The notes beneath the pieces were generated by a model, which searched no databases, had not been told where the DNA came from, and saw only the letters and a program-made list of their open reading frames with translations. Shown here one piece after another: positions 11,097 to 47,934 of a stretch of DNA of 64,000 bases. Positions within the stretch are counted from its first letter, which is position 1. Every line of letters starts with the position of its first letter. This DNA comes from Vicinamibacterales bacterium (GTDB taxonomy: Bacteria; Acidobacteriota; Vicinamibacteria; Vicinamibacterales; UBA8438). The translations under genes were made by a program, and so were the position numbers. The DNA lies in assembly GCA_965202695.1 (NCBI GenBank), contig OZ241843.1:4352701-4416700 (forward strand), read 5' to 3'.

Positions 11097-11338
11097 GGTG
11101 TCTCTGCCGGTCCGGTCACGCTGACCTGCGTCCCGGCCCGCACGGCGGTCTCGGTGACGGACGCGCCGGCCGTCACGCTGCCCCGGACGTTCCGCGGTTG
11201 CCGCCGCCGTGCGATCCGGTCGGCCGCCCGTCGTCGGAACGCCGCACGCCCGCGCTGTCCGCCGGAGCCGCTTTTCTCGTCATGCCGTGATTCTATCCGC
11301 GAAAGTGGGAGAAGCGCGGCAGGGCCGGCGGCGCGCCG

Positions 11339-16680: not shown

Positions 16681-16692
16681 GAAAGGACGGGA
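16530..16692 (+). repeat. Interspersed repeat family, copy A. Left half plus an internal 18-bp tandem expansion; overlaps the nadE 3' end.
   Basis: GCCCGCGGTGGAACCCCCGCGTCGCACC ... CGAACGCCGAGGGCGCCGGCGGACAGAGAACG ... GACAAGGCGTGAGAAAGG aligns by eye with copies at 29533, 32141, 43376 and (inverted) 38061. Boundaries are approximate. Confidence 0.75.
16591..16680 (+). repeat. 18-bp tandem repeat, about 4.5 units (CCGGCGGACAGAGAACGT).
   Basis: Units at 16591, 16609, 16627 and 16645, plus a partial unit at 16663. Units 1 and 2 are identical; units 3 and 4 differ at 1-2 positions. In frame with nadE, the array encodes PADRER-type hexapeptides and supplies the stop codon. Confidence 0.9.
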
Positions 16693-20250: not shown

Positions 20251-20332
20251 GCAGCCCGCGGCGGAACACCGCCACGCCGAATGCAGCGCCGCTCGCAATG
20301 CCGCGGGGCGTTTCGCCGCGGGCGGTCAGGAC
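20251..20332 (+). repeat. Interspersed repeat family, copy B (short, internally deleted variant).
   Basis: CAGCCCGCGGCGGAACACCGCC...GAATGCAGCGCCGCTCGCAATGCCGCGGGGCGTTTCGCCGCGGGCGGTCAGG matches the two ends of the full-length copies. Boundaries are approximate. Confidence 0.6.
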
Positions 20333-21886: not shown

Positions 21887-22173
21887 GCGCGTACCCTACA
21901 CCAGAGTCACGGCGCGGATACGGCGTGGTTCCCGGCCTCCAGGCCCCCCGAACGGGTACGGACGCCGCGAGAACCAGCCGCGCCGGATGGGCGTCCCCCT
22001 TCTTGACGCGCACCCATTCCTGGAGGGTCGGCCGGGCGCCGGGCGGAGCCGCAAGCCGGCGATCGGCGGGCCCGCCGCAACGGCGCCCGCGCGGGGCGCC
22101 GCGGCCGTTCCGGGACCACCGGTTCCGGCCGCCGGCCCCCCGCACTCCGGCCGGACCGGTGATACACTGGGCC

Positions 22174-29532: not shown

Positions 29533-29722
29533 GCCGCCGTGGTGGAACCCCGCGCCGCACTGCACCCGAAGGGCGCCGGCAGGGAGCGCCCGCCCGACAA
29601 GGCGCGGGGAGGGCGCATCCTGGACATGCGGCAACCGCGGACGGCAAGCAGTCCGGCGAACGACGCGGTCGGGCGGGATGCATCGCCGCTCGAATGCGGC
29701 GGGGACCTTCGCCACCGGCTGC
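29533..29722 (+). repeat. Interspersed repeat family, copy C (full length).
   Basis: GCCGCCGTGGTGGAACCCCGCGCCGCAC...GACAAGGCGCGGGGAGGGCGCAT...GGGATGCATCGCCGCTCGAATGCGGCGGGGACCTTCGCCACCGGCTGCTGGAC is collinear with copy F (43376-43541) and with the reverse complement of copy E. Confidence 0.75.
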
Positions 29723-29727
29723 TGGAC

Positions 29728-32062: not shown

Positions 32063-32140
32063 CGGCGGCAGTGTACCCGACGGGCCGGTCCGCTCGTCAC
32101 GCCAGGGCGTGGTCTCCGGCCGCGGCGGCGCCCGTCTTCA

Positions 32141-32240
32141 GGCCCGTGGTGGAACCCGCGCCGCGCCCGAAGGGCGCCGGCGAACGCCGAGGGCGCCGGC
32201 GGGCAGAGAACGCGCCGGGCGGGAGAAGCCGCGGGAAGAC
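32141..32240 (+). repeat. Interspersed repeat family, copy D (left half only).
   Basis: GGCCCGTGGTGGAACCCGCGCCGCGCCCGAAGGGCGCCGGCGAACGCCGAGGGCGCCGGCGGGCAGAGAACG aligns with the 5' parts of copies A and C. Boundaries are approximate. Confidence 0.6.
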
Positions 32241-32286
32241 CGCGCGGCGGGGCGGGTCCCGGACACGCCGGCGGGCGGGGCGGGTC

Positions 32287-32592
32287 TCAGTCGAGATCGA
32301 AGTCGCGGGAGGGCCGCGTGACCGGTTCGTGGCGCGCCCGTTCGAGCGCCTCGTCGAAACGCTTCGACAGGACGTCGCCGCGGTTCCGCTCGTCGCTCAC
32401 CGACTGCGCGAACCGGGCCTCGCGGCGGGCCGCCTGCTCGGCCAGGATGCGCCGGGCCTGATCCAGCTCGGGCTTGTCCTCGGGATCGGGATCGCGATGG
32501 GCGACCACGCGCTTCAGCCGGGAATCGACGGTCTGCACCGCGCCACAGCAGGGACAGACGACATCGAACTCCGACGACAGCAGCGTGGTCAT
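32287..32592 (-). CDS. Small hypothetical protein with an N-terminal CPCC motif and a charged helical tail.
   Basis: MTTLLSSEFDVVCPCCGAVQTVDSRLKRVV... followed by Arg/Glu/Asp-rich sequence. Non-shadow composition. Confidence 0.55.
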   Translation of the reverse strand: MTTLLSSEFDVVCPCCGAVQTVDSRLKRVVAHRDPDPEDKPELDQARRILAEQAARREARFAQSVSDERNRGDVLSKRFDEALERARHEPVTRPSRDFDLD

Positions 32593-33825: not shown

Positions 33826-36800
33826 ATGAGCCGCAGCACTTGCGGGCGCGCCATCCGGAACCGCGTGGTCCGCGCCGTCCTGATCGGCGCGCTGGCCCTC
33901 GGCTGGACCGTCGATGCGATGGCCCAGGCCGCGACCCCGTTCTTCCCGTACTACGGCAAGAACCGGGTCAAGTACGACGACTTCCAGTGGCACATCTACA
34001 CCACCGACCACTTCGAGATCTTTTACTATCCCGAAGTGGAAGAGCACCTGGAGCGCGTCGCGAGCTACGCGGAGAGCGCGTATGCCCAGATCAGCGCCGA
34101 CCTGACGCACGACCTCGCGAACCTCGTGCCCCTCGTGATCTTCAAGACGCACAGCGAGTTCGAGCAGCAGAACATCATTCCCGGCGCGGTGTCCGACGGC
34201 GTCGGCGCCTTCGCCGAGCCGTTCCGGCAGCGGATCGTGCTCCCCATCGACGAGCCGCCCGACCAGCTCTACCGGCTGATCGCCCACGAGCTGACCCACC
34301 AGTTCGCGTTCGACATCATCCCGCGCTCGGTCATCCGGCGCGGCATCCCGTTGTGGGTGGACGAAGGACTGGCCGACTACCTGGGCGGCGTGTGGCGGCC
34401 CCTCGACCTGATGACGGTGCGCGACGCCGCCCTCTCGGACACCCTGCCGGAAATGAGCAACTTCGAGGGCGGGGGCATCAACGCGAGCCCCCGGCTCGTC
34501 TACAACCTGGGACACGCCGCCTTCGAGTTCATCGAGGATCGCTGGGGCATGGCCGGCGTCCGGGAGTTCCTGTTCTCGTTGCGGAAGTCGGTGATCGGCG
34601 GCGAGAGCGACATCTACGAGGACGCGTTCAACATCCCCGCCGAGGAGTTCGACGTCGAGTTCGAGTCCTGGATCCGGCGGCGGTTCCAGGCCTTCCGGGA
34701 CAAGGAGCGGCCCGACGACTACGGCCGCGACCTGGCCCCCGACCCGTCCGAGACGCCGTACCTGGCGGTCTATTCCATCGAGCCGTCGCCGTCCGGCGAC
34801 CTCCTCGCCGCCTACGCGATCAACCGCAAGGAGCGGGAGATCGACGTCATCCTGCTGTCGACCGAGGACGGCGAAGTCGTGGGCAACCTGACCGCCGGCT
34901 TCAACCAGGATCTCGGGTACGAGTCGATTCAGCTCCCGGGCGCCCGGTGGAACGCGGTGCCGTGGATGTCGTGGTCGGGGGTCGACGACCGCCTGGCGTA
35001 CTTCGTCCGCAAGGGGAAGTACCGGTCGCTGATGCTGCAGAACGTGGTGACCCGGGACGCCGAACGGATGATCGACCTCCCGATGGTCGACGCCCCCGAA
35101 TCGCCGGACTTCTCGCCGGACGGACGCCACGTCGTCTTCTCGGCGCTGCAGAACGCGGTGGGCGACATCTACCTCCTGGACCTCGAGACCGAGGAGGTGA
35201 CGAACCTGACCGAGGACGAGTTCGCCGACTATGCGCCGACGTTCTCGCCCGACGGCTCCTATCTCGTCTACGTGGCGCGGATCAGCGGCAACAACAAGCT
35301 GTTCAAGCTCGACCTCGCCACGCGGGAAAAGACGCAGCTCACGTTCGGGACGTTCAGCGAGGCGGGCGCCCAGTTCCTCGACGACGACACCCTGGTCTTC
35401 TCGTCGACGGCCACCGACCCGCTGGCCCCGGTCGACCCGGAAGTGGCCGCCAACGGCGACATCTACAACGTGTGGACGCTCGATCTGAACACCGGCGAGT
35501 TCCGCCAGTACACCGACACCGTCACCGGCAACGTCTCGACCGTCGTCCTGCCCGGCGACCCCGAGCCGCGCATCGCCTTCGTCACCTATTTCAAGGGCGA
35601 GTACGGGATCCACACCATCGAGAGGGACGAGCCGCTGTACACCGCGTTCACGTCGGACTTCGGCGCCCCCGGCCCCAACATCGACTTCCAGGCGCCGTTG
35701 ACCCACACCCTCGTGACCGCCAACAACCGGCGCAAGGGACGGTTCGAGAAGATGTTCCTCGACGGGACGCCGCCCCTCAACGTCGGGTTCACCAACAGCG
35801 GCGACATTCTCGGCGGCACCGTCGTCTCGTTCTCCGACGTCCTCGGCGACCAGAGCTTCAACCTCTTCGCCTATTCCATCGCCCAGTACCGGACCTTCTC
35901 GGGTTCGTACGTCAACATGAGCGGCCGCTTCCAGTTCGCCTTGCAGGGGTTCTCGCAGGAGATGTTCTTCTACGGCGCGGCCGGCTTCTACGCGCCGTCG
36001 CTCGCCTTCCTCAGCCGTGACGAGGCGCTCGCGGTGCAGACGGTGCGGGGCGGAAGCGCCTTCGGCATCTACCCGCTCGACCGCTACCGCCGCCTCGAGC
36101 TGACCGGCGGGATGTTCCACTTCAACGAGCGGTTCAACGACCCGTTCCTGCAGCAGCAGTCCGACACGTACCAGCAGCAGCGGTTCGGCACCCGGCTGTT
36201 CCGCAGCGGCACCCAGCTGCCCGTCGGGGTCTCGTTCATCCAGGAGACCACCGTCTTCCGCGAGTTCGGGCCGGTGTCGGGCAACACGATGCGCCTCGCC
36301 TTCCAGTACGCGCCGACCGTGGGCGACACGTTTCTGGGCAAGCAGACCCTCGACGCCGACGCCCGCTACTATCTGCGGCTCGGCGAGACCGGCGTGCTCG
36401 CCCTGCGCGGCCGCGCCCTCAAGAGCTTCGGGGATTTCCCGGACTTTCTCTACTTCGGCGGAAACTCGGAGATGCGCGGCTACGAATATCTGGAGTTCAT
36501 CGGGCACAACGCCATGTTCTTCAACGCCGAGTTGCGCTTCCCGCTCATCGAGGCGATGCTGACGCCGATCGGCCTGATGGGAGGCGTCCGCGGGACGTTC
36601 TTCTTCAACATGGGCGGAGCGAGCCTGAACGACCAGCCGTTCCAGTGGCTCGCCACGGGCGCCGAAACCGTGACGCCGACCATCGGCTTCGGCCGGAACC
36701 CCGTGACCGGCGGCTACTTCGAAGTGTTCGGCGACCCGGCGCAGGTCTCGGGGTTCCGGCTCGTGGACGGCCGGGCGTCCTACGGCATCGGCCTGATGAC

Positions 36801-36948
36801 GTCGGTCATCGGCATCCCGCTGCACTTCGACTGGTCCTGGCGCACGCTGTTCAACGAGGATTGGGAGAACATCGTCTTCGCGACCCGAGGGGGCAGCGCC
36901 GTCTTCCGCGACCCGCGCTTCGACTTCTGGATCGGCTACGACTTCTGA
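33826..36948 (+). CDS. 1040-aa outer-membrane fusion protein: N-terminal HExxH peptidase-like domain, TolB-like PD40 beta-propeller repeats, and a C-terminal Omp85/BamA-like beta-barrel.
   Basis: Signal peptide (…TVDAMAQAA), LIAHELTHQF (HELTH codons 34285-34299) and WVDEGLADY. PD40-type repeats (FSPDGRHVVFSA, FSPDGSYLVYVA, YNVWTLDL). The C-terminal region has GGNSEMRGYEY, FNAELRFPL and the terminal ...FWIGYDF (aromatic last residue). Confidence 0.85.
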   Translation: MSRSTCGRAIRNRVVRAVLIGALALGWTVDAMAQAATPFFPYYGKNRVKYDDFQWHIYTTDHFEIFYYPEVEEHLERVASYAESAYAQISADLTHDLANLVPLVIFKTHSEFEQQNIIPGAVSDGVGAFAEPFRQRIVLPIDEPPDQLYRLIAHELTHQFAFDIIPRSVIRRGIPLWVDEGLADYLGGVWRPLDLMTVRDAALSDTLPEMSNFEGGGINASPRLVYNLGHAAFEFIEDRWGMAGVREFLFSLRKSVIGGESDIYEDAFNIPAEEFDVEFESWIRRRFQAFRDKERPDDYGRDLAPDPSETPYLAVYSIEPSPSGDLLAAYAINRKEREIDVILLSTEDGEVVGNLTAGFNQDLGYESIQLPGARWNAVPWMSWSGVDDRLAYFVRKGKYRSLMLQNVVTRDAERMIDLPMVDAPESPDFSPDGRHVVFSALQNAVGDIYLLDLETEEVTNLTEDEFADYAPTFSPDGSYLVYVARISGNNKLFKLDLATREKTQLTFGTFSEAGAQFLDDDTLVFSSTATDPLAPVDPEVAANGDIYNVWTLDLNTGEFRQYTDTVTGNVSTVVLPGDPEPRIAFVTYFKGEYGIHTIERDEPLYTAFTSDFGAPGPNIDFQAPLTHTLVTANNRRKGRFEKMFLDGTPPLNVGFTNSGDILGGTVVSFSDVLGDQSFNLFAYSIAQYRTFSGSYVNMSGRFQFALQGFSQEMFFYGAAGFYAPSLAFLSRDEALAVQTVRGGSAFGIYPLDRYRRLELTGGMFHFNERFNDPFLQQQSDTYQQQRFGTRLFRSGTQLPVGVSFIQETTVFREFGPVSGNTMRLAFQYAPTVGDTFLGKQTLDADARYYLRLGETGVLALRGRALKSFGDFPDFLYFGGNSEMRGYEYLEFIGHNAMFFNAELRFPLIEAMLTPIGLMGGVRGTFFFNMGGASLNDQPFQWLATGAETVTPTIGFGRNPVTGGYFEVFGDPAQVSGFRLVDGRASYGIGLMTSVIGIPLHFDWSWRTLFNEDWENIVFATRGGSAVFRDPRFDFWIGYDF

Positions 36949-37095
36949 CCGCCCGAGGCGCGAGAGCGAGAGGACGCGCGCCGGCACGGCGGTGGATCTC
37001 GCCGCTTGCAAGCGGTCGTGAGCACGTGTTACCGTAGGGTTCCCTTTCGTCGTTCCGCCATTGACGACCCCCCTGCGAGATCCCATCCAACCATA

Positions 37096-38064
37096 ATGAA
37101 GGTCGTCGTCGCGGGCAGCGGAGGATTCATCGGTGGGCACCTCGCCAGGGCGTTGCTGGCGGACGGCCACCGCGTCCGTTGCGTGGACTGCCGACCGCTG
37201 AAGGAGTGGCAACAGGTCCACGACGACGCCCAGAACGTCGTCGCCGACCTCCGGCGCCGCGACGCCTGCATGGCCGCCTGCGAGGGAATGAACGCCTGTT
37301 ATCAACTGGCCGCCGACATGGGGGGGATCGGCTTCATCGAGCTCAACAAGGCGCTGTGCATGCTCTCGGTCCTGATCAACACCCACATGCTTCTGGCGGC
37401 CAGGGACCACGGGGTCGAGTCGTTCTTCTACGCTTCGTCCGCCTGCGTCTACAACGAAGACAAGCAGAGCCGCGCGGACGCGGCTCCCCTCCGGGAAGCG
37501 GACGCCTACCCCGCCATGCCCGAGGACGGCTACGGCTGGGAGAAGCTGTTTTCCGAACGGATGTGCCGCCACTTCCGCGAGGACTTCGGGCTGCGCACAC
37601 GCGTGGCCCGCTATCACAACGTCTACGGTCCGTTCGGCACGTGGGAGGGCGGCCGGGAGAAGGCGCCGGCCGCGATCTGCCGCAAGGTGATCCACGCCAA
37701 GCGCACCGGCGACCTCGACGTCGAGATATGGGGCAGCGGCGCGCAAACCCGGTCCTTCATGTACATCGACGACTGCCTGAAGGGCACCCGCGACATCATG
37801 GCCAGCGACATCCTCGACCCCGTCAACCTCGGCTCGAGCGAGCTGGCGACCGTCGATGGACTCGTGGACCTGGTCGAGGACATCGCCGGCGTGACGTTGA
37901 AGCGCCGCTACCGGCCCGACGCGCCCAAGGGCGTGAACGGCCGCAACAGCGACAACTCGATGATCCGGCAGGCTCTCGGGTGGGAGCCGTCGACCCGGCT
38001 GCGGGACGGCATGGAACGCACCTACCGCTGGATACACGACGAGTACGTGAAGAAGTACGGCTGA
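37096..38064 (+). CDS. gme: GDP-mannose 3,5-epimerase-like NAD-dependent epimerase (SDR superfamily).
   Basis: GSGGFIGGHL, YASSACVY, PEDGYGWEKL, and especially RYHNVYGPFGTWEGGREKAPAAICRK closely parallel plant GME (…FHNIYGPFGTWKGGREKAPAAFCRK) as I remember it. Start ATG 37096. Confidence 0.8.
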   Translation: MKVVVAGSGGFIGGHLARALLADGHRVRCVDCRPLKEWQQVHDDAQNVVADLRRRDACMAACEGMNACYQLAADMGGIGFIELNKALCMLSVLINTHMLLAARDHGVESFFYASSACVYNEDKQSRADAAPLREADAYPAMPEDGYGWEKLFSERMCRHFREDFGLRTRVARYHNVYGPFGTWEGGREKAPAAICRKVIHAKRTGDLDVEIWGSGAQTRSFMYIDDCLKGTRDIMASDILDPVNLGSSELATVDGLVDLVEDIAGVTLKRRYRPDAPKGVNGRNSDNSMIRQALGWEPSTRLRDGMERTYRWIHDEYVKKYG

Positions 38065-38239
38065 ACAGCCCGCGGCGAAACGCCCGGCCGCATTGCGAGC
38101 GGCGATGCGTCATCCCGTCCGACCGCGTCGTCCGGCGGTTGAACATGCTTGACGTCGATATGCGCCTTCATCGCGCTTCGTCCGCCGGGCGATCTCTGTC
38201 CGCCGACGCCCTCGGTGTTCGCCGTCGCCCCCCCGGCGC
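38061..38239 (-). repeat. Interspersed repeat family, copy E (full length, inverted), directly abutting the G22 tract.
   Basis: CTGAACAGCCCGCGGCGAAACGCCCGGCCGCATTGCGAGCGGCGATGCG...GGCGGTTGAACATG...ATATGCGCC...GTCCGCCGACGCCCTCGGTGTTCGCC aligns along its whole length with the reverse complement of copy F. Confidence 0.8.
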
Positions 38240-38261
38240 GGGGGGGGGGGGGGGGGGGGGG
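38240..38261 (+). repeat. Homopolymer G22.
   Basis: 22 consecutive G, counted directly. It ends 103 nt upstream of ATG 38365. Confidence 0.95.
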
Positions 38262-38364
38262 ACAGGCAGTGAAACGATCGCACGCCGACCGGCCCGCAAG
38301 GCGCCGTCCGACGGCTCGACGGGCCGGCCCGGACGACCCCGCCGGACACGCCCGGCCGCACGCC

Positions 38365-40716
38365 ATGCCCCGACGCCTGCCTCCCGGTGACGCGTCCGGT
38401 TCCGACGCGCGTCCCCGCGCGCCGGGGGTCTCGATCATCATCCCGGCCCGGAACGAGGAAGACAACCTGCCGGCGGCCCTCGACGCGGTTCTGGCCCAGG
38501 ACTACGCCGGATCCGTGGAGGTCGTCGTCGCCGACGGTTCCGACACCGCGGCCACGGCGGAGATGCTGCGGCGGCGTTATCCGACGGTGCGGCGGGTGCC
38601 CAATCCGGCCCGGACCATCCCCGCGGGCCTCAACTGCGCGTTGCAGGCGGCGACCGGCGAGATCGTCGTGCGTTGCGACGCCCGTACGGTGCTGTCGCCC
38701 GGGCACGTGCGGCGGGCCGTCGCCACGCTGGTTCGCACGGGCGCAGCCAGCGTCGGAGGACGACAGAACGTGGTCGGCGCCACGCTGGCCGGACGGGCGT
38801 TCGCGCTGGCCGTCCGTACGGTGATGGGTTCCGGCAGCTCGCGTTACCGCATGGGAAAGAGCGAGGGTCCCACCGACAGCGTCTATCTGGGCGCCTGGTT
38901 CCGGACGACGTTGAACGCGATTGGAAGATTCGACGTCGCGCTTCTCAAGAATCAGGACTACGAGCTCAACTGGCGGCTGCGGCGCCGCGGCGGCGTCGTG
39001 TGGTTCGATCCGGGCTTGTCGGCCGAGTACCGGCCGCGCGCCACGCTGCAGGCGCTGGCGCGGCAGTATTTCGACTACGGCTGGTGGAAGGCGGTGATGC
39101 TGAGGACGCACCCCGGGTCCATCAAGCCCAGACAGGTGGCCGCGCCGCTGCTGGTGCTGGGGCTGGCGGTTTCCGGGGCGCTGGCCCTGACCGGCGCACC
39201 GGGCGGGACGATGCTGCCGATCGGCTATCTGACCCTGTTGGCGGTCGGGTTTCTGGAGACGCTCCGGCACCGCCGCGACCCTCTCGCCACCGCCCTCGCG
39301 CCCGCCGTGCTGGCCACGATGCACCTGGCCTGGGGCGTCGGCTTCTGGTCGTCGATGGCGCAGAACCTGCAACCGCGCCGGACCGGGAGGCCCCGGAGTC
39401 TGCCGCGTGGAGCGCGGGGTCCCGGAGAGTCGGCCGGACGGGAAGCAGAGCCTTCAGGCGACGATTTCCGAGTCAGGTGCCGCATCCTGATTCTGAGCTC
39501 CACCTACGTACCGGACCCGTCGAGCACCGGCCAGCACTTTCATGACGCGGCCGCGGCGCTGGCCGACCGCGGCCACCGCGTGTCCGTGGTGACCGCCAAT
39601 CGGGGCTACGACGACCCGACCCGGAAGTACCCCTCGTGGGAAATGCGGGACGGGGTCGTCATCCGGCGCATTCCCCTGAGCTCGCTGGGCAAGGACAGCC
39701 TGGTCGCCCGCGCCGCCGGCTGGCTCTCCTTCGTGGCGCAGGCCGCCGGCCGCGGGCTCCTGTCGCCGCGGCCGGACGTGGTCCTGGTGAGCACGGCGCC
39801 TCCGATCGGGGCCGTCGCGGCCCTCGTCCTTTCGCGGCTGCGCCGCGTCCCCCTCCTCTACTGGATTCACGACCTGCACCCGAACCTGGCCATCGCGCTG
39901 GGAGTGCTGACGGACGACAGCCTCTGGGCGCGTCTGCTGGATCGGCTGAACCGCGGAATCCTCGGCCACGCCACGCGCATCGTGTGCCTCGACCGCTTCA
40001 TGGCCGCGCAGGTGTCGCGCAAGGCGGACGTGACGCCGAAGTCCACCATCCTGCCGCCGTGGCCGCACAACGACGACGGCGAGTGGATCGACCACGCCGA
40101 AAACCCCTGGCGCCGGAAACACGTCGGGGAGGGGCGCCGCGTCGTGATGTACAGCGGCAACCACAGTCCCGCCCATCCGCTCGACACGTTGCTGCAAGCC
40201 GCGCTGGAGCTTCGGGATGAAGAAGGGCTCGCGTTCCTCTTCGTCGGCGGCGGCACCGGCAAGCAGCAGATCGAGGCGACGATCGAGCGCGAGGGTCCCC
40301 GGAACATCCGCTCCCTGCCGTACCAGCCGCTGGAAACTCTGCGCTATTCCCTGGCGGCGGCCGACGTGCACGTCGTGTCCGTCGGCGACCGGACCGTCGG
40401 AGCCGCGCATCCGTGTAAAATCTATGGGGCGCTGGCGGCGGGGCGTCCGGTCCTGCTGTTCAGTCCGCGCGTCTGCCATGCGACCGACATCATCGGACCG
40501 CACGACGTGGGCTGGCGCGTGTCCCACGGGGACGTGCGCGGGGCCGTGGAGGCGTTGCGGAGTATCCGGCGCGCCCCCCCCGAACGTCTCGAGACGATGG
40601 GCCGAACCGCACAGGAACTGGTCCGGCGCCGCTACTCGCGCGACGCGCTCTGTCACCGGTTCCGGGACGAGGTCGAGGCGCTTCTCCCGGCTCGGCCTCG
40701 TGAACAGGAACGGTAG
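38365..40716 (+). CDS. In-frame fusion of a family-2 glycosyltransferase (with TM segments) and a GT4/WcaI-like (GT-B) glycosyltransferase, 783 aa.
   Basis: The GT2 part has VSIIIPARNEEDNL, VVVADGSDT, CDARTV and NQDYELNWR, then hydrophobic segments. The GT-B part starts about residue 370 (RILILSSTYVPDPSSTGQHFHD...VVTAN...). The later GGG.GKQQIE, LPYQP and HPCKIYGALAAGRPVL fit the GT4 C-terminal half. No stop codon separates the two halves. The upstream in-frame extension to 38149 runs through the repeat and G22 and was rejected. Confidence 0.8.
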   Translation: MPRRLPPGDASGSDARPRAPGVSIIIPARNEEDNLPAALDAVLAQDYAGSVEVVVADGSDTAATAEMLRRRYPTVRRVPNPARTIPAGLNCALQAATGEIVVRCDARTVLSPGHVRRAVATLVRTGAASVGGRQNVVGATLAGRAFALAVRTVMGSGSSRYRMGKSEGPTDSVYLGAWFRTTLNAIGRFDVALLKNQDYELNWRLRRRGGVVWFDPGLSAEYRPRATLQALARQYFDYGWWKAVMLRTHPGSIKPRQVAAPLLVLGLAVSGALALTGAPGGTMLPIGYLTLLAVGFLETLRHRRDPLATALAPAVLATMHLAWGVGFWSSMAQNLQPRRTGRPRSLPRGARGPGESAGREAEPSGDDFRVRCRILILSSTYVPDPSSTGQHFHDAAAALADRGHRVSVVTANRGYDDPTRKYPSWEMRDGVVIRRIPLSSLGKDSLVARAAGWLSFVAQAAGRGLLSPRPDVVLVSTAPPIGAVAALVLSRLRRVPLLYWIHDLHPNLAIALGVLTDDSLWARLLDRLNRGILGHATRIVCLDRFMAAQVSRKADVTPKSTILPPWPHNDDGEWIDHAENPWRRKHVGEGRRVVMYSGNHSPAHPLDTLLQAALELRDEEGLAFLFVGGGTGKQQIEATIEREGPRNIRSLPYQPLETLRYSLAAADVHVVSVGDRTVGAAHPCKIYGALAAGRPVLLFSPRVCHATDIIGPHDVGWRVSHGDVRGAVEALRSIRRAPPERLETMGRTAQELVRRRYSRDALCHRFRDEVEALLPARPREQER

Positions 40717-40843
40717 ATCGGATCGGCATGTCGACGTCACGATGCCGGACCGAACCGAACCGAATCATCGACTACGAGGCGACGATTCGAGTATCCGGTG
40801 GCGCTGACTGAACGATCCACGGAACTTCCACACGGAACCCGCC

Positions 40844-41635
40844 ATGCCCTCCATGCCCATATTCCTGGACAAGCTCCTGACCCTGTTCGCCATGCCGCTC
40901 GGGATCGCCGTCTTGGCGGGGCTGCTCGGTCTGGTGGCGCTTGCGGTCGGGCGCCGCGGCGCCGCGGCGCCGCTGTACCTGTTCGCCTTCGTCTGGCTCT
41001 GGGGCTGGTCGACGTCGCCCGTTGCCTTCTCCGTCAACCATGCGCTGACCGACCGCTACCCGTTCCAGCCCGCGGAGGCGCTGCCGGCTGCCGACGCGAT
41101 CGTAGTGCTCGACAACACCTACCCGAATCCGACCCATCCGACCCATCCCGATCTGTCGACCGCCTCGGATCGGGCCTGGCACGCCGCGCGGTTGTATCTG
41201 GCCGGCAAGGCGCCGCTCGTCATCATCTCCGCCGGCAGCGTGTGGGGGCATCCGAACGCGGCTTCCCCGGCGAGCGCGACCCGCACCTTGCTCGAAGCGT
41301 TAGGGGTGCCGAGCGACGCCATCGTGATCGAGGACCGCAGCCGCAACACCCGGCAGAATGCCTTGTACACGGCCAAGCTCGCCGCCGACCGGGGCATCAC
41401 GAAGGTGCTGCTGTCCACCTCCGCGTTTCACATGACACGCGCCGAAGGGGCTTTCCGGCAGGTGGGGTTCGAGGTGATCCCGGCCGCGACCGACTACGTC
41501 CCCCGCCGCCCGGGCTCGCCCCTCACGCCCTTGATACTGCGCCTCCTTCCCGACGTCGGCGCGCTGGAGCGCAGCACCATGGCATACAAGGAACACGTCG
41601 GCCTCCTGGTGTATCGCCTCCGCGGCTGGGCGTGA
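40844..41635 (+). CDS. YdcF/ElyC (DUF218) family membrane protein.
   Basis: N-terminal TM segments, AIVVLD, the typical DUF218 block GVPSDAIVIEDRSRNTRQNA, and LLSTSAFHMTRA. Confidence 0.8.
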   Translation: MPSMPIFLDKLLTLFAMPLGIAVLAGLLGLVALAVGRRGAAAPLYLFAFVWLWGWSTSPVAFSVNHALTDRYPFQPAEALPAADAIVVLDNTYPNPTHPTHPDLSTASDRAWHAARLYLAGKAPLVIISAGSVWGHPNAASPASATRTLLEALGVPSDAIVIEDRSRNTRQNALYTAKLAADRGITKVLLSTSAFHMTRAEGAFRQVGFEVIPAATDYVPRRPGSPLTPLILRLLPDVGALERSTMAYKEHVGLLVYRLRGWA

Positions 41636-41665
41636 CGCGGCGTCCACGCGCAGACGAAGAAGAAC

Positions 41666-43225
41666 ATGACTGGAGGCCATGCTTTCGTCGAATGCCTGAA
41701 AGCGCAAGGCGTCGAGGTAATCTTCGGATTGCCGGGAAACCACCTCGACCCCGTTTACGAAGCGCTGTATCACAACCAGGACAGCATCCGGCACTACGTC
41801 ACGCGGCACGAAGGCGGCGCCGCGTTCATGGCGAACGGCTACGCTCGCGCCACCGGAGGCGTCGGTGTGGGCATGAGCATTCCCGGGCCCGGCGCCGCGA
41901 ACGCATCCACCGGCATCTGCGAGGCGTACACGGCCTGCTCGCCGGTGCTGTGGATTACCGGGCAGAATCCATCCCATCTGGCCCGAAAGGACCCGCGGAA
42001 GAAGTTTCACGGCCTGGATCAGCGCACCGTCTTCGCGTCGATGACCAAGCACGTCGAAATCGTGCATGGCGTCGAGCAGATTCCCGACGCCGTCAACCGC
42101 GCCTTCGGCGCGTTGCGATCGGGCCGACCCGGGCCGGTGTTGATCGAATTGGCGATTGACGCCCTGCAAGCGGAAGCGGACCTGTCCATTCCGCCGCGAA
42201 ACGACGGTACCCGCGTGGCGGGAAGCGAGGCCGACATCGAAGCGGCGGTGAGGCTCATTTGCGCGGCGGAACGGCCGTTCATTCTTTCCGGCAGCGGAGT
42301 CGGCCACTCGCACGCGACCGACGAACTGCTCGAACTCGCGCGCACCCTCAACGCGCCGATAGCGATGACCAGCCTGGGCAAGGGCTCGATTCCCGAAGAC
42401 TCGCCCTGCTGCATCGGCATCTTTCGGGAAAGCGTCGCCCAGGCGGCCCTGAAAGCTTCCGATCTGGTGATTGCCGTCGGCGCCCGATTCACCTATCGAG
42501 ATACCGGCAACTGGACGCTGAAAATCGACAAGCCCCTGCTGCACATCGAGGCCGACGTCGACGAGATTCACGACGAGTACCCGGCGACGGTCGGCATCGG
42601 CGCGGATGCGAAGCTCGTCCTGAAACAGGTGAACGCCGCAATGCGGGACGAAAAACGGACGGACGGTTGGGGTGAAGGGGTCCGGCGGCTGCGGAGCCGG
42701 CTCACGTCAATCGCACCGCCGCAACTGCTGCGGGAAATGCGCGAAGTGATGCCGCGCGACGCCATCCTGTCGGTGGACGTCAACCTCACCGGCTACGCCG
42801 CGCTGCCGCATTTCCCGGTCTACTCGGCCGGAAGTTTCATCTTCTCCGGCATTTCGGTCGCCATGGGGATCGGGCTGACGGGCGCCATCGGTGCGCAGGT
42901 AGCGTATCCCGGCCGGAAGGTCGTCGCCCTCAACGGCGACGGCGGCTTCCTCATGACGAGCCCCGACTTCGCGACGGCGGTGATGTACGACCTCCCCGTC
43001 GTCACCCTGGTGATCAACGACAACCGGTATGCCTCCATCGAGCGGGAACAGTTGCGCCGTTTCGGCCAGCGCATCGGCGTCGATCTGGTGAACCCGGACT
43101 TCGTGCGGTTCGCCGAATCGTTCGGCGCCGTCGGGCTGCGCGTCGAAGACCCGGACGATTTTCGGCCGACGTTCGAGAAGGCGATCGCTCTGGACAAACC
43201 GGTCGTCGTCGAAATCGTCAAGTGA
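41666..43225 (+). CDS. Thiamine-diphosphate-dependent enzyme of the acetolactate synthase / benzoylformate decarboxylase superfamily, function unknown.
   Basis: N-terminal PYR domain (GVEVIFGLPGNHLDPVYEAL, RHEGGAAFMANGYAR, PGPGAANASTG) and a C-terminal ThDP-binding motif (LNGDGGFLMTSPDFATAV...PVVTLVINDNRYASI, i.e. GDG...N). No small regulatory subunit gene is adjacent. Confidence 0.85.
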   Translation: MTGGHAFVECLKAQGVEVIFGLPGNHLDPVYEALYHNQDSIRHYVTRHEGGAAFMANGYARATGGVGVGMSIPGPGAANASTGICEAYTACSPVLWITGQNPSHLARKDPRKKFHGLDQRTVFASMTKHVEIVHGVEQIPDAVNRAFGALRSGRPGPVLIELAIDALQAEADLSIPPRNDGTRVAGSEADIEAAVRLICAAERPFILSGSGVGHSHATDELLELARTLNAPIAMTSLGKGSIPEDSPCCIGIFRESVAQAALKASDLVIAVGARFTYRDTGNWTLKIDKPLLHIEADVDEIHDEYPATVGIGADAKLVLKQVNAAMRDEKRTDGWGEGVRRLRSRLTSIAPPQLLREMREVMPRDAILSVDVNLTGYAALPHFPVYSAGSFIFSGISVAMGIGLTGAIGAQVAYPGRKVVALNGDGGFLMTSPDFATAVMYDLPVVTLVINDNRYASIEREQLRRFGQRIGVDLVNPDFVRFAESFGAVGLRVEDPDDFRPTFEKAIALDKPVVVEIVK

Positions 43226-43375
43226 ACGACCCGTGGCGAAGCTCCCGCTGCATTCAGTCGATCTGCCGGCCGCGAGCCGGCGCGAGACCGTGCTCGCCGA
43301 TGCCGTCTGCGCTGCCGCGCGTCCGCGGGTCGGTCACCAGCGAATCCTGCCCGACAGCCCGGGAACACTCTTCAC

Positions 43376-43541
43376 AGCCCGTGGTGGAACCCCCGCGTCG
43401 CACCGAGAGCGGCGATGCGCCCGCCTGACAAGGCGTGAGAAGGGCGCATATTGGGCATATTCAACCGCCGAACAACGCAGTCAGGCGGGATGCAGCGCCG
43501 CTCGAATGCAGCGGGGCGTTTCACCACGGGCTGTTCAGCCC
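43376..43541 (+). repeat. Interspersed repeat family, copy F (full length).
   Basis: CAGCCCGTGGTGGAACCCCCGCGTCGCACC...CTGACAAGGCGTGAGAAGGGCGCATATTGGGCATATTCAACCGCC...GGGATGCAGCGCCGCTCGAATGCAGCGGGGCGTTTCACCACGGGCTGTTCAGCC. Its 3' end overlaps the last codons of the epimerase gene on the other strand. Confidence 0.8.
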
Positions 43542-44575
43542 AGGGGTCCCATGACAGACCCTCGCGAACGTGAATCCGCCGTGCGCCGGCGCCTGGCGAC
43601 TCTGCCGGCCCGGACCGATCCCGGTTCGGCGAAGGGCGCGCCCGGCGCGGTCCGGCCGCGGAAGTACGCCACCGTACGCGCGATCCCGTCGGCCAGCGAG
43701 AATTCCGGAAGCCAACCGAGCACACGCCCGGCGCGCGACACGTCCAGGCAGTAGTCGCGCAGTTCGCCGGGCCGCGCCGGCGCCGAGAACGGCTCGATGC
43801 TCGTGCCGCACGCCGCCTGCACGGCGCGGAACAACTCGCCGGTGCGCACCGGCGTCCCCCCGGCGATGTTGAAGGGTCCCGCCGCGTCGCTGTCGATGGC
43901 GCGCAGGTTGGCCCGCACCACGTCCTCGACGTACACGTAGTCGCGGCCCATCCCCGCCGGCTGATCGGGATACGAGAAGATGGTCGGCCGCTCCCCGCGC
44001 AGCAGCTTCTGCGCGAAAATGGCGACCACGCCGGCTTCTCCGTGCGGATTCTGCCGCGGTCCGTAGACGTTGCCGTAGCGCAGCGTGATCGACGCCAGTC
44101 CATGTTCCCGCCGATAGAACTCCAGGTAGTGCTCACCGGCGAGTTTGTGGATGCCGTACGGAGACACCGGCCGCGGCGGCGTCTCCTCCGAAGCCGGGCG
44201 CCCGACGTCGCCATAGATGGTCCCGCCGCTGGAGATCAGGACGAAGCGCCCGACGCCGTGCCTGACGCAGCTCTGGAGCACGTTGAGGAGTCCGATGCAG
44301 TTGATGCGGGCGTCCAGCACCGGATCGCGCGCCGAAACGGTGACGCTTATCTGGGCGGCGTGGTGGTTCACGACGTCCGGGCGTTCCCTTTCCACGAGAA
44401 GATCGAAATCGGGCGCGGCGACGTCCACCTGCTGGAGCCGGGCTTCGCGGGGAACGTGGTCCGCGTTCCCGCTCGACAGGTCGTCTGCGACCACCACGTC
44501 GTGGCCGGCGGCGACGCAGGCGTCCGCAACGTGGGAGCCGATGAAACCGGCGCCGCCGGTCACCAGGATCTTCAT
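43535..44575 (-). CDS. NAD-dependent sugar epimerase/dehydratase (UDP-glucose 4-epimerase-like SDR).
   Basis: Has MKILVTGGAGFIGSH, SSGGTIYG, YGIHKLAGEHY (YxxxK) and RYGNVYGPRQ. Confidence 0.85.
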   Translation of the reverse strand: MKILVTGGAGFIGSHVADACVAAGHDVVVADDLSSGNADHVPREARLQQVDVAAPDFDLLVERERPDVVNHHAAQISVTVSARDPVLDARINCIGLLNVLQSCVRHGVGRFVLISSGGTIYGDVGRPASEETPPRPVSPYGIHKLAGEHYLEFYRREHGLASITLRYGNVYGPRQNPHGEAGVVAIFAQKLLRGERPTIFSYPDQPAGMGRDYVYVEDVVRANLRAIDSDAAGPFNIAGGTPVRTGELFRAVQAACGTSIEPFSAPARPGELRDYCLDVSRAGRVLGWLPEFSLADGIARTVAYFRGRTAPGAPFAEPGSVRAGRVARRRRTADSRSRGSVMGPLG

Positions 44576-44588
44576 GGGCGCGCAGATC

Positions 44589-46103
44589 TCAACGTCCCCC
44601 GAAGGCGACGACCGTCCAGAAGGTGCGCAACGCGATCAGGAGATCGAACAGCAGGTTCTGGTGCTTGACGTAGTACAGGTCGTACTCCAGCTTCACGTGC
44701 GCGTCCTCCACGGAACCGCCGTACGAGTGGTTGACCTGCGCCCAGCCCGATACTCCCGGGCGGACCGCGAGGCGCTCGCGGTAGAACGGAATCTCGCGTT
44801 CGAGCTGCTCGACGAACTCCGGCCGTTCCGGCCGCGGCCCGATCAGACTCATGTCTCCGCGCAACATGTTCCAGAACTGCGGGGTCTCGTCGATCCGGCT
44901 GAGCCGGAGGAATCGGCCGACCGGAGTGGCCCGCGGATCGTTCGTGCGCGCCCACTGCGGCCCGTTGCGCTCCGCGCCGGGACGCATCGTCCTGAACTTC
45001 ACGATCTCGAACTCCCGGCCGGCGCGTCCGACCCGGCGCTGCCGGTACAGGATCGGCCGTCCGACGCCGAGCCGGACGAGCGGGCCGAGCACCGGCAGGA
45101 ACAGCAGAAGCGCGGCGCATCCGGCGCATCCAATCGCGACGTCGAACGCGCGTTTCGCCATCCGGTTCAGGTTGCGGAAGAACGCCGACGCGACGGGAGC
45201 CGCGAAGACCTGATCGGTTTCCAGGTAGCGAACCGGCGTGCGCAGCAACATCTGCTCGTATACCGCCTGCATCGTCATCATGTCGACGTCGCGGTACTGC
45301 GCGTACACGATGGCCCGGATCTGGTCGGTGCCGAGCGGCGCGGTCGGCGCCAGGACGATCTCCTCCACCCGCCGCTCCACCACCAGCCGACGCAGGCCGG
45401 CGGCGTCGACGCAGTCGGCCACGTCCCGTCTCCGGATATCCGCATCGCGCTCGCCGACGAAGGCGACCACGGTCCGGTCCGGCGACGTCGTCTTCAAGAC
45501 CCGCGCTATCTCGCGCGCCGCCGCGCCGGTGCCGACGACGGCCACCGGACGCCGGCGCGACGCGTGCGTGACGAAGCGCAGGTAGACCATGCGCCACGCC
45601 ATCGTCATCGGAAACACGAGGCCGAAGCCGACCAGCACGCCGAACCGCGGCAGCAGATCGCGCGGCGCCAGGAAGTACGCCGCCGTGTAGACCGCGGCGC
45701 CGATCGCGACGGCCTGCAGGACGACCACCGCGGTCGCGCGCCCGGACATGGCGATACCCGGACGACGCGCCGGCAAAAGCAGGAACAGCCACGGAACGAT
45801 CAGGCTGAACCATGCCGCGCGCCCGATCACCCAGGCCAGGTCGAAGGGTTGGGCGGCGGCGGAACTCCAGGCCCAGAGTCCGCCCAGGGCGGCGCACACG
45901 AACGCGAGGCCATCCCCCAGTACCAGCAGGAACCCATCCGCGGTCCCGCGGCGTTTCCCCTGCGCGGCCGGGAACGGCAGCGCGGTCGGCCCGGACGCCG
46001 GCCCGGGAACCGCCACCGCAACGGACCGGCGGCTGCCCGCCCACCCCGACGACCCACGACGGCGGTCGGCGGGCGGTCCGATCGACCGTTCAGTACGGTG
46101 CAT
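44589..46103 (-). CDS. Polyprenyl-phosphate sugar phosphotransferase (WbaP/EpsB-type priming glycosyltransferase for exopolysaccharide synthesis).
   Basis: N-terminal TM segments, a central Rossmann-like region (VAVVGTGAAAREIA), and a C-terminal catalytic domain (KRAFDVAIG, ILYRQRRVGR.GREFEIVKFRTM, RIDETPQFWNMLRGDMSLIGPRPERP, PGVSGWAQV). Confidence 0.9.
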   Translation of the reverse strand: MHRTERSIGPPADRRRGSSGWAGSRRSVAVAVPGPASGPTALPFPAAQGKRRGTADGFLLVLGDGLAFVCAALGGLWAWSSAAAQPFDLAWVIGRAAWFSLIVPWLFLLLPARRPGIAMSGRATAVVVLQAVAIGAAVYTAAYFLAPRDLLPRFGVLVGFGLVFPMTMAWRMVYLRFVTHASRRRPVAVVGTGAAAREIARVLKTTSPDRTVVAFVGERDADIRRRDVADCVDAAGLRRLVVERRVEEIVLAPTAPLGTDQIRAIVYAQYRDVDMMTMQAVYEQMLLRTPVRYLETDQVFAAPVASAFFRNLNRMAKRAFDVAIGCAGCAALLLFLPVLGPLVRLGVGRPILYRQRRVGRAGREFEIVKFRTMRPGAERNGPQWARTNDPRATPVGRFLRLSRIDETPQFWNMLRGDMSLIGPRPERPEFVEQLEREIPFYRERLAVRPGVSGWAQVNHSYGGSVEDAHVKLEYDLYYVKHQNLLFDLLIALRTFWTVVAFGGR

Positions 46104-46276
46104 ACGCCTTCGGCAACGGAAGTCCGTCGAACACGATCAGGCGCGCCGCGGCTTCGACGACCGGCGCGTCCGCAAGGCAGCCGAGCCCGCCGAGCGGCGC
46201 GGACGGCAGGAATACGGTTTCGCCCCCCGGGTAAGGGAACGGCGCGCACGGCGGGGGCGGTTCAGGGCCTCGGGGT

Positions 46277-46303
46277 CCCCCCCCCCCCCCCCCCCCCCCC
46301 CCC
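46277..46303 (+). repeat. Homopolymer C27 (G27 on the minus strand).
   Basis: 27 consecutive C, counted directly. It begins 173 nt upstream (in minus-strand sense) of ATG 46103 of the priming transferase. Confidence 0.95.
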
Positions 46304-46400
46304 GGACAAAGGGGAGGGCGTACGCAGCGTTCTTGCCCCCGGCGCGGATTTCTGGTCGGCCCGCGGCGAACAGCCCGCCCGCATTCGCGAGCGGCGGTCC
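46304..46400. repeat. Interspersed repeat family, copy G (degenerate or rearranged fragment), directly abutting the C27 tract.
   Basis: GGACAAAGGGGAGGGCG resembles the GACAAGGCGTGAGAAGGGCG block in plus orientation. CCCGCGGCGAACAGCCCGCCCGCATTCGCGAGCGGCGG (46359-46397) matches the CGCGGCGAAACGCCCGGCCGCATTGCGAGCGGCG block as it reads in copy E. Confidence 0.5.
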
Positions 46401-46431
46401 CGGCGCGGGGTTCCTATTCACCAAGCGGTCC

Positions 46432-47934
46432 CTACAGGCGCGTGAGCCGCATTTCACTGCGGCCGAGATCGAGCGCCACGCGATAGTCGCGGAGGAAGTG
46501 GTGGCCGATGGTGCCGCCGATGTGGAATCCCAGGAGGGCGCTCGGACGGTGCAGGTTCAGCACCACCACCGAGTAGTTGGGATACAGCAATTGATCGAAG
46601 GCGAGCGAAGTGCCCGGACGCAGATAGGCCTGCTCGTCCCAGCCGGACGTCCCGTACACGTTGACCGGCACCTGCCGCACTTCGAGCGGCGGCAGCAGAT
46701 TCGCGGTCCCGCGGCTGATCGAGATGACCTCGCCGCCGGTGTCGACCACGAAGCTGCGGGGAATCCGGTCGTCGACGACCCCGCGCACGACCGCAAGCCG
46801 ATGCTGCCGCAGGGGCATCGAGACGTCGAACGGTTCGTCCGGAAGCTCCTCGCCGATGACGATCTCCCGGCGCGCATAGTCGACGATCATCGACAACCCG
46901 ACCGCGAGCGGCGAGAACGCTTCCGCCTCCGGCGTCGGCAGACCGCCGAGCGGAGGGCTCTTGATCAACGCCGGCAGGTTCCGGATGCCGAGGGAGCCGA
47001 ACTCGATCGACTCGAGGCGGCCGGCCTGCAGGCCGCGGAAGCCGACCTCGCCGACGCCGGCGCTCAGCGTCGTGCTGATCGGGCGTACGCCGAGCTGCCG
47101 GGCGACGCGCTGGGACAGCACCGTCTGCTCGGCGCCGGTGTCCATGACGAAATCCACGACGTCACGGCCGTTGACCCGGCCCTGGACGATGACCTTGTCG
47201 CCTGCCAGCCTGAACGGAATCGTGTGGAGGCGGCCGGGCGACGACATCTCGACGGCCGGCCGGTCGCCGAACGACCGCAGGAACTGCACTTCCGCACGCG
47301 CCCACTCGGCCTTCTCGGTCTCGATTCCCGGGGGGAGCAGATCCACGTAGCGCTCGTAGGCGTCCGCGGCGGCGGCGAACCGGCGCGTGCGCCGGTGGAT
47401 GTACCCCAGGGTGTGGTACGCGGCGGCCGAATCGGGAGTCGCCTCGAGGGCCGCCCGGGCCCAGTGGAGCGCCTCGTCGTACCGCTGCCGCGTCGTGAGG
47501 CTTCGGGCCACGCCGTGGCGGGCGGCGCCGGAACCCGGGTCCATGGCGAGCGCGTCACGGTACAGTTGCTCCGCCTCGTCGAACAATCCGCCGCCCCACA
47601 GGGCGTCGCCGACGAGGGCGGCGATCTCGGGGTCGCCCGGGGCGATCTCGCGCAGGGCCTGCGCCTCCATCTGGGCGCGGGTGAACTCGGCGACCGGCAG
47701 CAGCGCCCGCAACATGCCGGCGGTGGACCGCACCCGCTGCTCGCCGGCGGCCTCCTCCTGCGCCTCCTCGAAAACGCGAATGGCCTCCCAGTACCGCAGA
47801 TCGCCGAGCAGCAGATTGCCCAACTGGATGCGGGTCTCGACGCGCGCCGCCGTCGGCGTCGACTGCGCGCCGAGGACGACCGACAGGACCGTCAGCCCGG
47901 CCGCGGCTATCAGGGCGCGTGACGCGAATCTCAT
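46432..47934 (-). CDS. Secreted TPR-repeat protein with two tandem retropepsin-like aspartic protease domains.
   Basis: Signal-like N-terminus and TPR-like helical repeats (…ALAMDPGSGAARHGVARSL..., AYHTLGYIHRR). Two D-T-G active-site motifs are present (DFVMDTGAEQTVLS and SFVVDTGGEVISIS), each in a retropepsin-like context. Confidence 0.75.
   Translation of the reverse strand: MRFASRALIAAAGLTVLSVVLGAQSTPTAARVETRIQLGNLLLGDLRYWEAIRVFEEAQEEAAGEQRVRSTAGMLRALLPVAEFTRAQMEAQALREIAPGDPEIAALVGDALWGGGLFDEAEQLYRDALAMDPGSGAARHGVARSLTTRQRYDEALHWARAALEATPDSAAAYHTLGYIHRRTRRFAAAADAYERYVDLLPPGIETEKAEWARAEVQFLRSFGDRPAVEMSSPGRLHTIPFRLAGDKVIVQGRVNGRDVVDFVMDTGAEQTVLSQRVARQLGVRPISTTLSAGVGEVGFRGLQAGRLESIEFGSLGIRNLPALIKSPPLGGLPTPEAEAFSPLAVGLSMIVDYARREIVIGEELPDEPFDVSMPLRQHRLAVVRGVVDDRIPRSFVVDTGGEVISISRGTANLLPPLEVRQVPVNVYGTSGWDEQAYLRPGTSLAFDQLLYPNYSVVVLNLHRPSALLGFHIGGTIGHHFLRDYRVALDLGRSEMRLTRL

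Follow-up and report, generated by a model that had tools for sequence, protein, structure and literature searches.

Long sense-strand G tracts between co-directional genes, one of them inside a MITE-like repeat, at a polysaccharide island of a sponge-associated Vicinamibacterales bacterium

To our knowledge, hypermutable repeats that randomise surface glycans have come almost only from cultured animal pathogens and commensals. Experimentally characterised homopolymer switches usually comprise 6-17 nucleotides (nt). In the closest described system, the tlpB-hp0102 leader of Helicobacter pylori, a variable repeat of 6-16 G gradually sets the level of a lipopolysaccharide (LPS) glycosyltransferase via the small RNA (sRNA) RepG (PMC8295292). 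Simple sequence repeat contingency loci form a second point of comparison: in the lipooligosaccharide, capsule and glycosylation genes of Neisseria, Haemophilus and Campylobacter, G/C homopolymers are concentrated in surface-glycan genes and their lengths differ in near-identical strains (PMC11868660, PMC5084427, PMC8355987). Here we describe two long G:C homopolymers, tracts A and B, which lie in front of glycan genes in a 64,000-nt stretch of DNA from a Vicinamibacterales bacterium (contig OZ241843.1 of assembly GCA_965202695.1), hereafter called the window. The tracts, the genes upstream of them and the two operons that follow them are located as follows.

38240-38261, plus strand: tract A, G22 in the sense direction of epi1 and GT2::GT4; 175 nt past the epi1 stop codon and 103 nt before ATG 38365
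46277-46303, minus strand: tract B, C27 on the plus strand, which equals G27 in the sense direction; 128 nt past the stop codon of the TPR/Asp-protease gene and 173 nt before ATG 46103
37096-38064, plus strand: epi1, NAD-dependent sugar epimerase/dehydratase, co-directional with and upstream of tract A
38365-40716, plus strand: GT2::GT4 fusion glycosyltransferase (Pfam), first gene below tract A; start codon conserved in the relative L088
40844-41635, plus strand: DUF218 protein (Pfam), plus-strand operon
41666-43225, plus strand: thiamine diphosphate (ThDP)-dependent enzyme (Pfam), end of the plus-strand operon
43535-44575, minus strand: epimerase (Pfam), minus-strand operon
44589-46103, minus strand: Bac_transf priming sugar transferase (BacT; Pfam); ATG 46103 conserved in five lineages
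46432-47934, minus strand: TPR + aspartyl-protease gene, co-directional with and upstream of tract B

The original prediction, made from this stretch alone, had placed G22 and C27 on one strand at 38240-38261 and 46277-46303, and these coordinates are correct, as are the distances of 103 and 173 nt to the two start codons. Pfam assignments agree with the gene identities it gave (GT2::GT4 fusion, DUF218, ThDP enzyme, epimerase, Bac_transf) and with the inward orientation of the genes, and each downstream gene does see poly-G on its own sense strand. The description of the two sites as non-coding leaders holds for the first word only: both tracts lie outside open reading frames (ORFs), with G on the sense (non-template) strand, and what surrounds them are untranslated spacers between co-directional genes (epi1/GT2::GT4 and TPR/Asp-protease/Bac_transf).

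In the window, which has a G+C content of 72%, tracts A and B are the sole homopolymers longer than 8 nt. Shorter G/C runs are rare: five runs of 7 nt were found where a model of independent and identically distributed bases (iid) predicts 42, three of 8 nt where 15 are expected, and not one of 9-12 nt, with an iid expectation of 8.7. Tracts A and B aside, runs of at least 9 number zero against an expectation of 8.8. Under a first-order Markov model, 7e-7 runs of at least 22 nt are expected per 64 kb, and a chance origin of G22 and C27 is excluded.

Compared with the H. pylori RepG system, the locus shares a length-variable G run on the sense strand that is located outside both an ORF and a promoter spacer. 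The RepG target operon contains an LPS/O-chain glycosyltransferase, glycan operons are found here as well, and the outcome of RepG control is gradual and not ON/OFF. The two differ in the length of the repeats (6-16 G there, 15-27 here) and in their setting, which here is intercistronic and in one case inside a mobile repeat; furthermore, our locus belongs to an uncultured sponge associate of the phylum Acidobacteriota, and the location of its tracts on mRNA is presumed. With the simple sequence repeat contingency loci it has in common that lengths differ between close genomes, that the tracts are associated with surface genes (GT2::GT4 and Bac_transf here; wzx, wzy and a methyltransferase gene in sister lineages), and that the genes of the locus at which tracts occur vary from lineage to lineage. 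The known tracts, however, are mostly intragenic or in promoter spacers and 7-17 nt long, whereas those described here are intercistronic, non-coding, much longer and without an evident ON/OFF logic: their distances to the conserved ATGs downstream are 103 and 173 nt, neither tract is within an ORF or promoter spacer, and no promoter-like hexamers accompany them. The kind of element, a homopolymeric contingency element, would therefore already be known; new would be its unusual length, its intercistronic site, the delivery of one tract by a mobile repeat, and its occurrence in an uncultured sponge-associated acidobacterium.

Poly-G calls of two-colour sequencing chemistry, or chimeric joins at both points, had been named in the original prediction as findings that would overturn it. 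As a matter of reasoning, dark cycles would be expected to leave G runs at read 3′ ends and not internal runs after which the correct sequence resumes. The TPR/Asp-protease protein is encoded on 8 contigs of public assemblies, whose sample names (PANK22-1_SAMN1229xxxx) suggest re-assembled sponge metagenomes of Pankey et al. 2022, a paper cited by the reef microbiome resource. At least six assemblies, which come from different samples and pipelines, contain the same tracts in identical places and with collinear flanks: the metaSPAdes-type scaffolds L001, L002, L003 and L006, the Logan contig L114 and the window, whose source contig is longer than 1 Mb. Both flanks are joined alike across independent samples and three assembly pipelines. 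Moreover, the flanks of tract A are contiguous in L088 save for a clean insertion with target duplication, and all sponge lineages share the gene order across tract B (TPR/Asp-protease, then Bac_transf). Some observations are of the kind that errors would leave behind: several contigs terminate at or within the tracts (L004 stops at tract B, and L005 and L007 break off 30-105 nt before reaching it), the edges of the tracts look ragged when assemblies are compared, and G22 has exactly the length of the 22 canonical nt that it replaces in a repeat described below. Since independent samples reproduce the tracts in the same places and the flanks are collinear with those of relatives, we exclude artefacts and chimeras, an explanation that we regard as barely credible, and conclude that the tracts are genuine G:C homopolymers.

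A comparison of tract lengths among related genomes, as had been proposed, gave different assembled lengths in strains that are ~99.7% identical. Tract A measures 22 nt in the window, 26 in L002 and 27 in L001, and tract B measures 27 in the window, 17 in L001, 23 in L002, 21 in L003, 15 in L006 and at least 24 in L114. Outside the tracts, these strains are 99.6-99.7% identical. The window and L001 show 99.69% identity over 21.5 kb with only two indels, one of which is tract B, and four indels separate the window from L002, both tracts among them; these comparisons cover 16-21 kb, and the tract lengths are short-read consensus values that may partly be technical. The 27 nt of tract A in L001 (19654-19680) correspond to 22 plus five adjacent bases (GCGCC) read as C. 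Between the window and L001, we also noted an 11-nt indel in the GT2::GT4-DUF218 spacer (40812-40832), located at an imperfect direct repeat (CCACGGAAC..CCACACGGAAC).

How genuine tracts of this kind could act depends on what surrounds them. In relatives, the corresponding spacers are compact, with 88 nt on the A side (L088) and 44 nt on the B side (L117), which suggests co-transcription. Since the spacers separate co-directional genes and are only 88 and 44 nt long in these relatives, a promoter of their own for GT2::GT4 and Bac_transf is unproven. Neither spacer contains a match to a sigma-70-like or terminator-like consensus.

Homopolymers beside glycan genes are the textbook case of phase variation. 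Full ON/OFF switching would result if a tract were located in a promoter spacer, in the gap between activator and promoter as in Bordetella fim, or in an unrecognised ORF. A frameshift switch is excluded because both tracts lie outside ORFs. We considered a coding role for an ORF (38149-40716) that passes in frame through G22 into GT2::GT4 and rejected it: the L088 spacer lacks an equivalent ORF, and with the 26 and 27 nt of L002 and L001 the frame is broken. In the sister lineage L121, one added G creates a TAA right after a tract at the end of a methyltransferase ORF, which would be in line with classical switching. Against it stand the distances of 103 and 173 nt from conserved start codons and the length of 22-27 nt, which exceeds a promoter spacer of 16-18 nt, with no hexamers on either side. 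We therefore judge classical phase variation to be very unlikely at this locus. The Treponema pallidum tpr genes, with their upstream poly-G, have an intergenic homopolymer switch. The poly-C of Bordetella fim likewise is a non-coding G:C tract upstream of surface-structure genes, where transcription depends on its length (PMC1891110, on homopolymeric tracts in B. pertussis). In both cases the tract is in or beside a defined promoter or activator site, in contrast to the tracts described here.

Tract A is part of a repeat family with further copies in the window and in a relative.

38066-38269, plus strand: MITE-like insertion of 204 nt between two TGAA copies (38062-38065 and 38270-38273); tract A lies 8 nt from the right end of the insertion
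43375-43533, plus strand: full-length copy in the spacer between the convergent ends of the two operons, with terminal inverted repeats (TIRs) CAGCCCGTGGTGGAAC and GTTTCACCACGGGCTG and TTCA on both sides (nhmmer, E = 3.5e-39)
~29536-29724: full copy
16525-16691, 32137-32290 and 20272-20329: variants
L088, 7593-7773: copy in the relative

The family has a length of ~160-200 nt, 16-bp TIRs of the sequence CAGCCCGTGGTG(G/A)AAC and TGAA/TTCA flanks. Six significant copies of 58-190 nt are found in the 64 kb, mostly in spacers past stop codons. With TIRs, small size, no ORF, multiple copies, a target-site duplication and an empty site in L088, it shows the features of a miniature inverted-repeat transposable element (MITE); a comparison of the family with Rfam gave no match. 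The empty site in L088 has a single TGAA, and there the distance from the epi1 stop codon to the GT2::GT4 ATG is 88 nt, without repeat or tract. Protein identities between the window and L088 are 97% for the tricorn-like protein, 95% for epi1 and 90% for GT2::GT4.

The copy that carries tract A matches positions 36-184 of the repeat model (nhmmer, E = 2.6e-15; hidden Markov model of five other copies). Positions 1-35 of the model, which comprise the TIR and the subterminal region, are replaced by ACAGGCAG + G22, and one TIR is degenerate. The original prediction had each tract directly abutting a repeat copy. For tract A the association is real, although the tract lies inside the 204-nt copy and not next to it; at tract B, only 46359-46396 can be traced to the repeat and the 55 nt beside C27 cannot. 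As a separate observation, G22 stands for exactly 22 canonical repeat bases, GGTGCGACGCGGGGGTTCCACC, which themselves contain a G5 run. Such a length-preserving homogenisation was seen twice, in the G22 of the window and in the 27 nt of L001, where it may be an Illumina phasing error. Within one repeat copy (16591-16680), an 18-nt unit, CCGGCGGACAGAGAACGT, is present four times in tandem.

Neisseria Correia elements are MITEs that rewire neighbouring genes. The family described here resembles them in being small and non-coding, with TIRs, target duplication, many copies and locations between operon genes, and is set apart by its TIR sequence and TGAA duplication. A full-text literature search found no described MITE with a long hypermutable homopolymer in its subterminal region. 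In L008, a metagenome-assembled genome (MAG) from long reads, an insertion sequence (IS) transposase gene (DUF772 + DDE_Tnp_1; 21002-22249, minus strand) has the 16-mer CAGCCCGTGGCAGAAG near its end (20964-20979), which matches the MITE TIR at 13 of 16 positions; a single such end is present in the locus. This IS is a candidate autonomous partner of the repeat family.

For tract B, two neighbouring stretches are relevant.

46359-46396, plus strand: repeat-family fragment (TIR + hairpin region), 55 nt from tract B; 89% identical to 38068-38104 over 38 nt (blastn)
46104-46276, minus strand: untranslated stretch of 173 nt from tract B to the Bac_transf ATG

The fragment at 46359-46396 is below nhmmer significance, and the 55 nt next to C27 occur nowhere else in the window. 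The idea that both tracts occupy the same subterminal position of a MITE was considered and dropped: it holds for tract A, while tract B shows only a weak, non-significant resemblance (TTCA with a TIR-like 12-mer, and a GACAA-GG motif). Contigs end at the position of tract B in relatives whose BacT is 99%, 83% and 79% identical. Among the more divergent relatives (BacT 83% and 79%), the L115 contig runs out in garbled, G-rich sequence and that of L116 begins approximately at the first bases past the tract. The 173-nt stretch shows 82-90% nucleotide identity to relatives with BacT identities of 79-83%, compared with 88-90% for the coding sequence. Because the contigs of the 83% and 79% relatives end there and the 173-nt stretch is conserved, tract B probably predates tract A. 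The stretch itself, for which Rfam returned no hit and for which covariation was not significant with only three sequences, might contain a promoter or leader element. At this site, the spacer of more distant sponge lineages is 44 nt long (L117) or measures 248-440 nt without a tract.

These histories bear on the proposal that G22 and C27 form a coupled, symmetric pair. Tract A is a recent MITE-borne insertion that is absent from L088, tract B appears older, and sister lineages carry single tracts elsewhere in the island; the comparison of sites indicates that the two tracts were acquired separately. The inverted G/C pair arises because two convergent operons each carry a G run on the sense strand.

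The same arrangement had led to the suggestion that recombination between G22 and C27 flips the cassette 38262-46276 as a phase switch. The tracts do form an inverted repeat of 22-27 bp, a length near the minimum for RecA-dependent exchange. A flip would create the junctions GGCGC-Gn-(T)ACCCCGAGG and CCTTTGTCC-Gn-ACAGGCAGTGAAACG. No swapped junction was found in any junction-spanning assembly: all six (window, L001, L002, L003, L006 and L087) have the orientation of the window, as consensus sequences in which minority orientations are invisible. Among the Pfam hits for the genes called between 36.4 and 57.9 kb of the window (L001), no recombinase family appears, and one 474-aa product is hitless. 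Furthermore, tract A is missing in L088 and sisters have single tracts. A flip would only swap the operons and switch nothing, because each appears to be fed by a co-directional upstream gene and would still lie below such a gene afterwards. We consider an invertible cassette extremely improbable. The capsular invertons of Bacteroides (PMC10939037, PMC3090145) also place inverted repeats at polysaccharide loci of host-associated bacteria; unlike the locus described here, with 8 kb between the arms and one orientation seen, they are short promoter segments with dedicated recombinases.

Sister lineages contain further tracts in the same island, at sites that are not homologous to A or B. In L117, a G14 (11262-11275) is located 5 nt past the stop codon of a methyltransferase gene and 34 nt before the wzy ATG, and L118 has at least 17 at the contig end. 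L121 carries a G12 (15006-15017), and L122 at least 11, at codon 368 in the 3′ end of the methyltransferase gene, where one more G leads to an immediate TAA. Homology between L121 and L117 (90% protein identity) is lost precisely where the L121 tract lies and returns at the start of wzy. In L119, at least 17 C are found at the contig end, after a wzx-like gene. L008 (75% identity) lacks a tract upstream of GT2::GT4 and has a G11 upstream of a sulfotransferase gene. The repeat model gave no hits in the tract-bearing sisters L117, L119, L121 and L008, and the tracts are therefore not generally MITE-borne. Outside the glycan cluster of a more distant sponge lineage, L089, we observed a G11 (5341-5351) that forms part of a G-rich stretch (ggggaggggcG11agggggcg) in the space separating the convergent DUF169 and IF-2B-like genes.

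As controls, 78 glycan-type loci of other taxa, 1.2 Mb in total, were inspected, and their longest G/C run is 9 nt. In 70 kb of sequence from relatives, 0.008 runs of at least 14 nt are expected under a Markov model. All five tracts of at least 12 nt in the sampled sequence belong to its island part (post hoc test, P = 0.006).

Based on these observations, we propose that the tracts are slippage-prone, contingency-type sites that tune the downstream glycan genes gradually, a reading that we hold with moderate confidence and see as evenly balanced. It takes up one half of what had originally been suggested, a slipped-strand rheostat: genuine tracts with differing assembled lengths in front of glycan genes agree with it, whereas coupling of the two does not. 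A rheostat is a reasonable idea because of this position in front of glycan genes, and the graded route would be the most likely one because the tracts lie outside ORFs and no promoter flanks them. In such a mechanism, replication slippage would alter the length of the G run at hypermutable sites, and the length would set the amount of transcript or protein, tract A acting on GT2::GT4-DUF218-ThDP and tract B on the priming transferase and the epimerase. Two routes, alone or together, are conceivable. A G-rich non-template strand could block read-through transcription, depending on orientation and length, by R-loop or G-quadruplex formation, or the G run in the mRNA could change its structure or its pairing with an sRNA, as in the RepG/tlpB-hp0102 leader of H. 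pylori. The outcome would be population heterogeneity in the surface glycan, plausibly a help against host phagocytosis or phages.

ViennaRNA with G-quadruplex terms predicts quadruplexes of 4-6 layers in both sense RNAs, with minimum free energies lower by 31 and 47 kcal/mol, and all assembled tract lengths would be sufficient for a G-quadruplex if at least ~15 G are needed. G-rich non-template strands block transcription depending on their orientation (PMC3561996), and also on their length (PMC5499740). The likeness to our tracts is the pure G run on the non-template strand, for which the same dependence on orientation and length would be expected; in these two sources, the effect is an in vitro one, mainly with T7 RNA polymerase, and it is not known to serve as a natural regulatory device of bacteria. 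For the second route, an Rfam scan of the 64 kb was hitless for an sRNA partner, and no search aimed at a C/U-rich sRNA was made.

Several points weigh against this proposal. Tract A is absent from L088, a close relative with the same genes, and is therefore not required for the locus to work. With 22-27 nt, the tracts are longer than characterised switches and could be the result of runaway expansion. The spread of lengths among assemblies may partly be technical, through short-read stutter or phasing, as the 27 nt of L001 and the ragged tract edges indicate; in addition, the lengths come from consensus assemblies, in which heterogeneity within a population and reversibility are not visible. 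Transcription through the tracts is presumed, as would be any transcriptional start site, promoter or sRNA partner. Without the window, which was picked for its tracts, the enrichment in the island is reduced to 3/3 (P = 0.16) and not significant. The bias of G to the sense strand, 4/6 (4/5 without L119, where the downstream gene is unknown), is not significant either.

The tracts could alternatively be a neutral by-product: runaway slippage or debris at MITE ends and rearrangement junctions that a symbiont under relaxed selection tolerates in the non-coding spacers of a rapidly evolving island subject to horizontal shuffling, with no regulatory role. Tract A was brought in by a selfish repeat or expanded within it and L088 does without it, tracts are located at block breakpoints (tract A 8 nt from the insertion junction; the L117/L121 homology ends at the L121 tract), their positions differ between lineages, their lengths are beyond those of known functional tracts, and no promoter or ORF is affected. 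This explanation has more difficulty with the fact that G/C runs are otherwise strongly avoided, yet long tracts recur in the island of four to five lineages and are missing from the housekeeping flanks of the same loci and from the 1.2 Mb of other-taxon loci. Tract B also seems to have been kept across lineages whose BacT differs by up to 21%. Finally, going by PMC3561996 and PMC5499740, G22-27 on the non-template strand within an operon is unlikely to be transcriptionally silent. Neutrality is a serious alternative, which we nevertheless think somewhat unlikely.

Going beyond gradual tuning at this one locus, long G runs of 12-27 nt could be a clade-specific, recurrently evolved device of sponge-associated Vicinamibacterales, sometimes delivered by a MITE, which would diversify surface polysaccharide expression from within operons by R-loop/G-quadruplex attenuation that depends on length, or by pairing of an sRNA with the intercistronic G run. 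We put this forward as speculation and regard it as unlikely. If true, Acidobacteriota and sponge symbionts would gain their first contingency-locus system, a portable dimmer that can be inserted between any two cistrons.

In sponges, evasion of phagocytosis and of phages is thought to hinge on surface sugars. With hypermutable repeats of this kind, bet-hedging by localised hypermutation would extend to marine invertebrate symbioses, here at an O-antigen/exopolysaccharide-type island of an uncultured sponge-associated acidobacterium. The unusual siting of the tracts, which are intercistronic, on the sense strand and very long, with one of them in a mobile repeat, would point to a graded mechanism at the level of transcription or RNA instead of frameshifting or promoter spacing. 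The tracts break short-read assemblies exactly at glycan loci, and such loci are therefore systematically fragmented in MAGs.

The island lies between the TPR/Asp-protease gene and a second border gene.

33826-36948, plus strand: tricorn-like/PD40 gene, other border of the polysaccharide island

In sponge lineages, a polysaccharide island of ~9-10 kb and of varying content separates these two genes (36949-46431 in the window). In the free-living marine relatives L092, L093 and L094, whose TPR/Asp-protease is 66-71% identical, the TPR/Asp-protease gene is directly beside the tricorn-like gene. The L121 island encodes Bac_transf, epimerase, Wzx, methyltransferase, Wzy, GT4, GT2 and epimerase, i.e. 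a full Wzx/Wzy-type set, where the window has GT2::GT4, DUF218 and ThDP genes instead. The ThDP gene is absent from L088, in which DUF218 is directly followed by a repeat copy and the convergent epimerase gene. The nearest named genome is a Vicinamibacterales MAG with a GT2::GT4 that is 75% identical, and exact-protein look-ups for two window proteins returned no record. Rfam and tRNA scans of the window found nothing. At 4324-4437, two 43-nt direct repeats are located 71 nt apart; on the minus strand they show a Shine-Dalgarno-like GGAGGGAGGGAA, an ATG and similar first codons, and they may represent duplicated starts of small genes.

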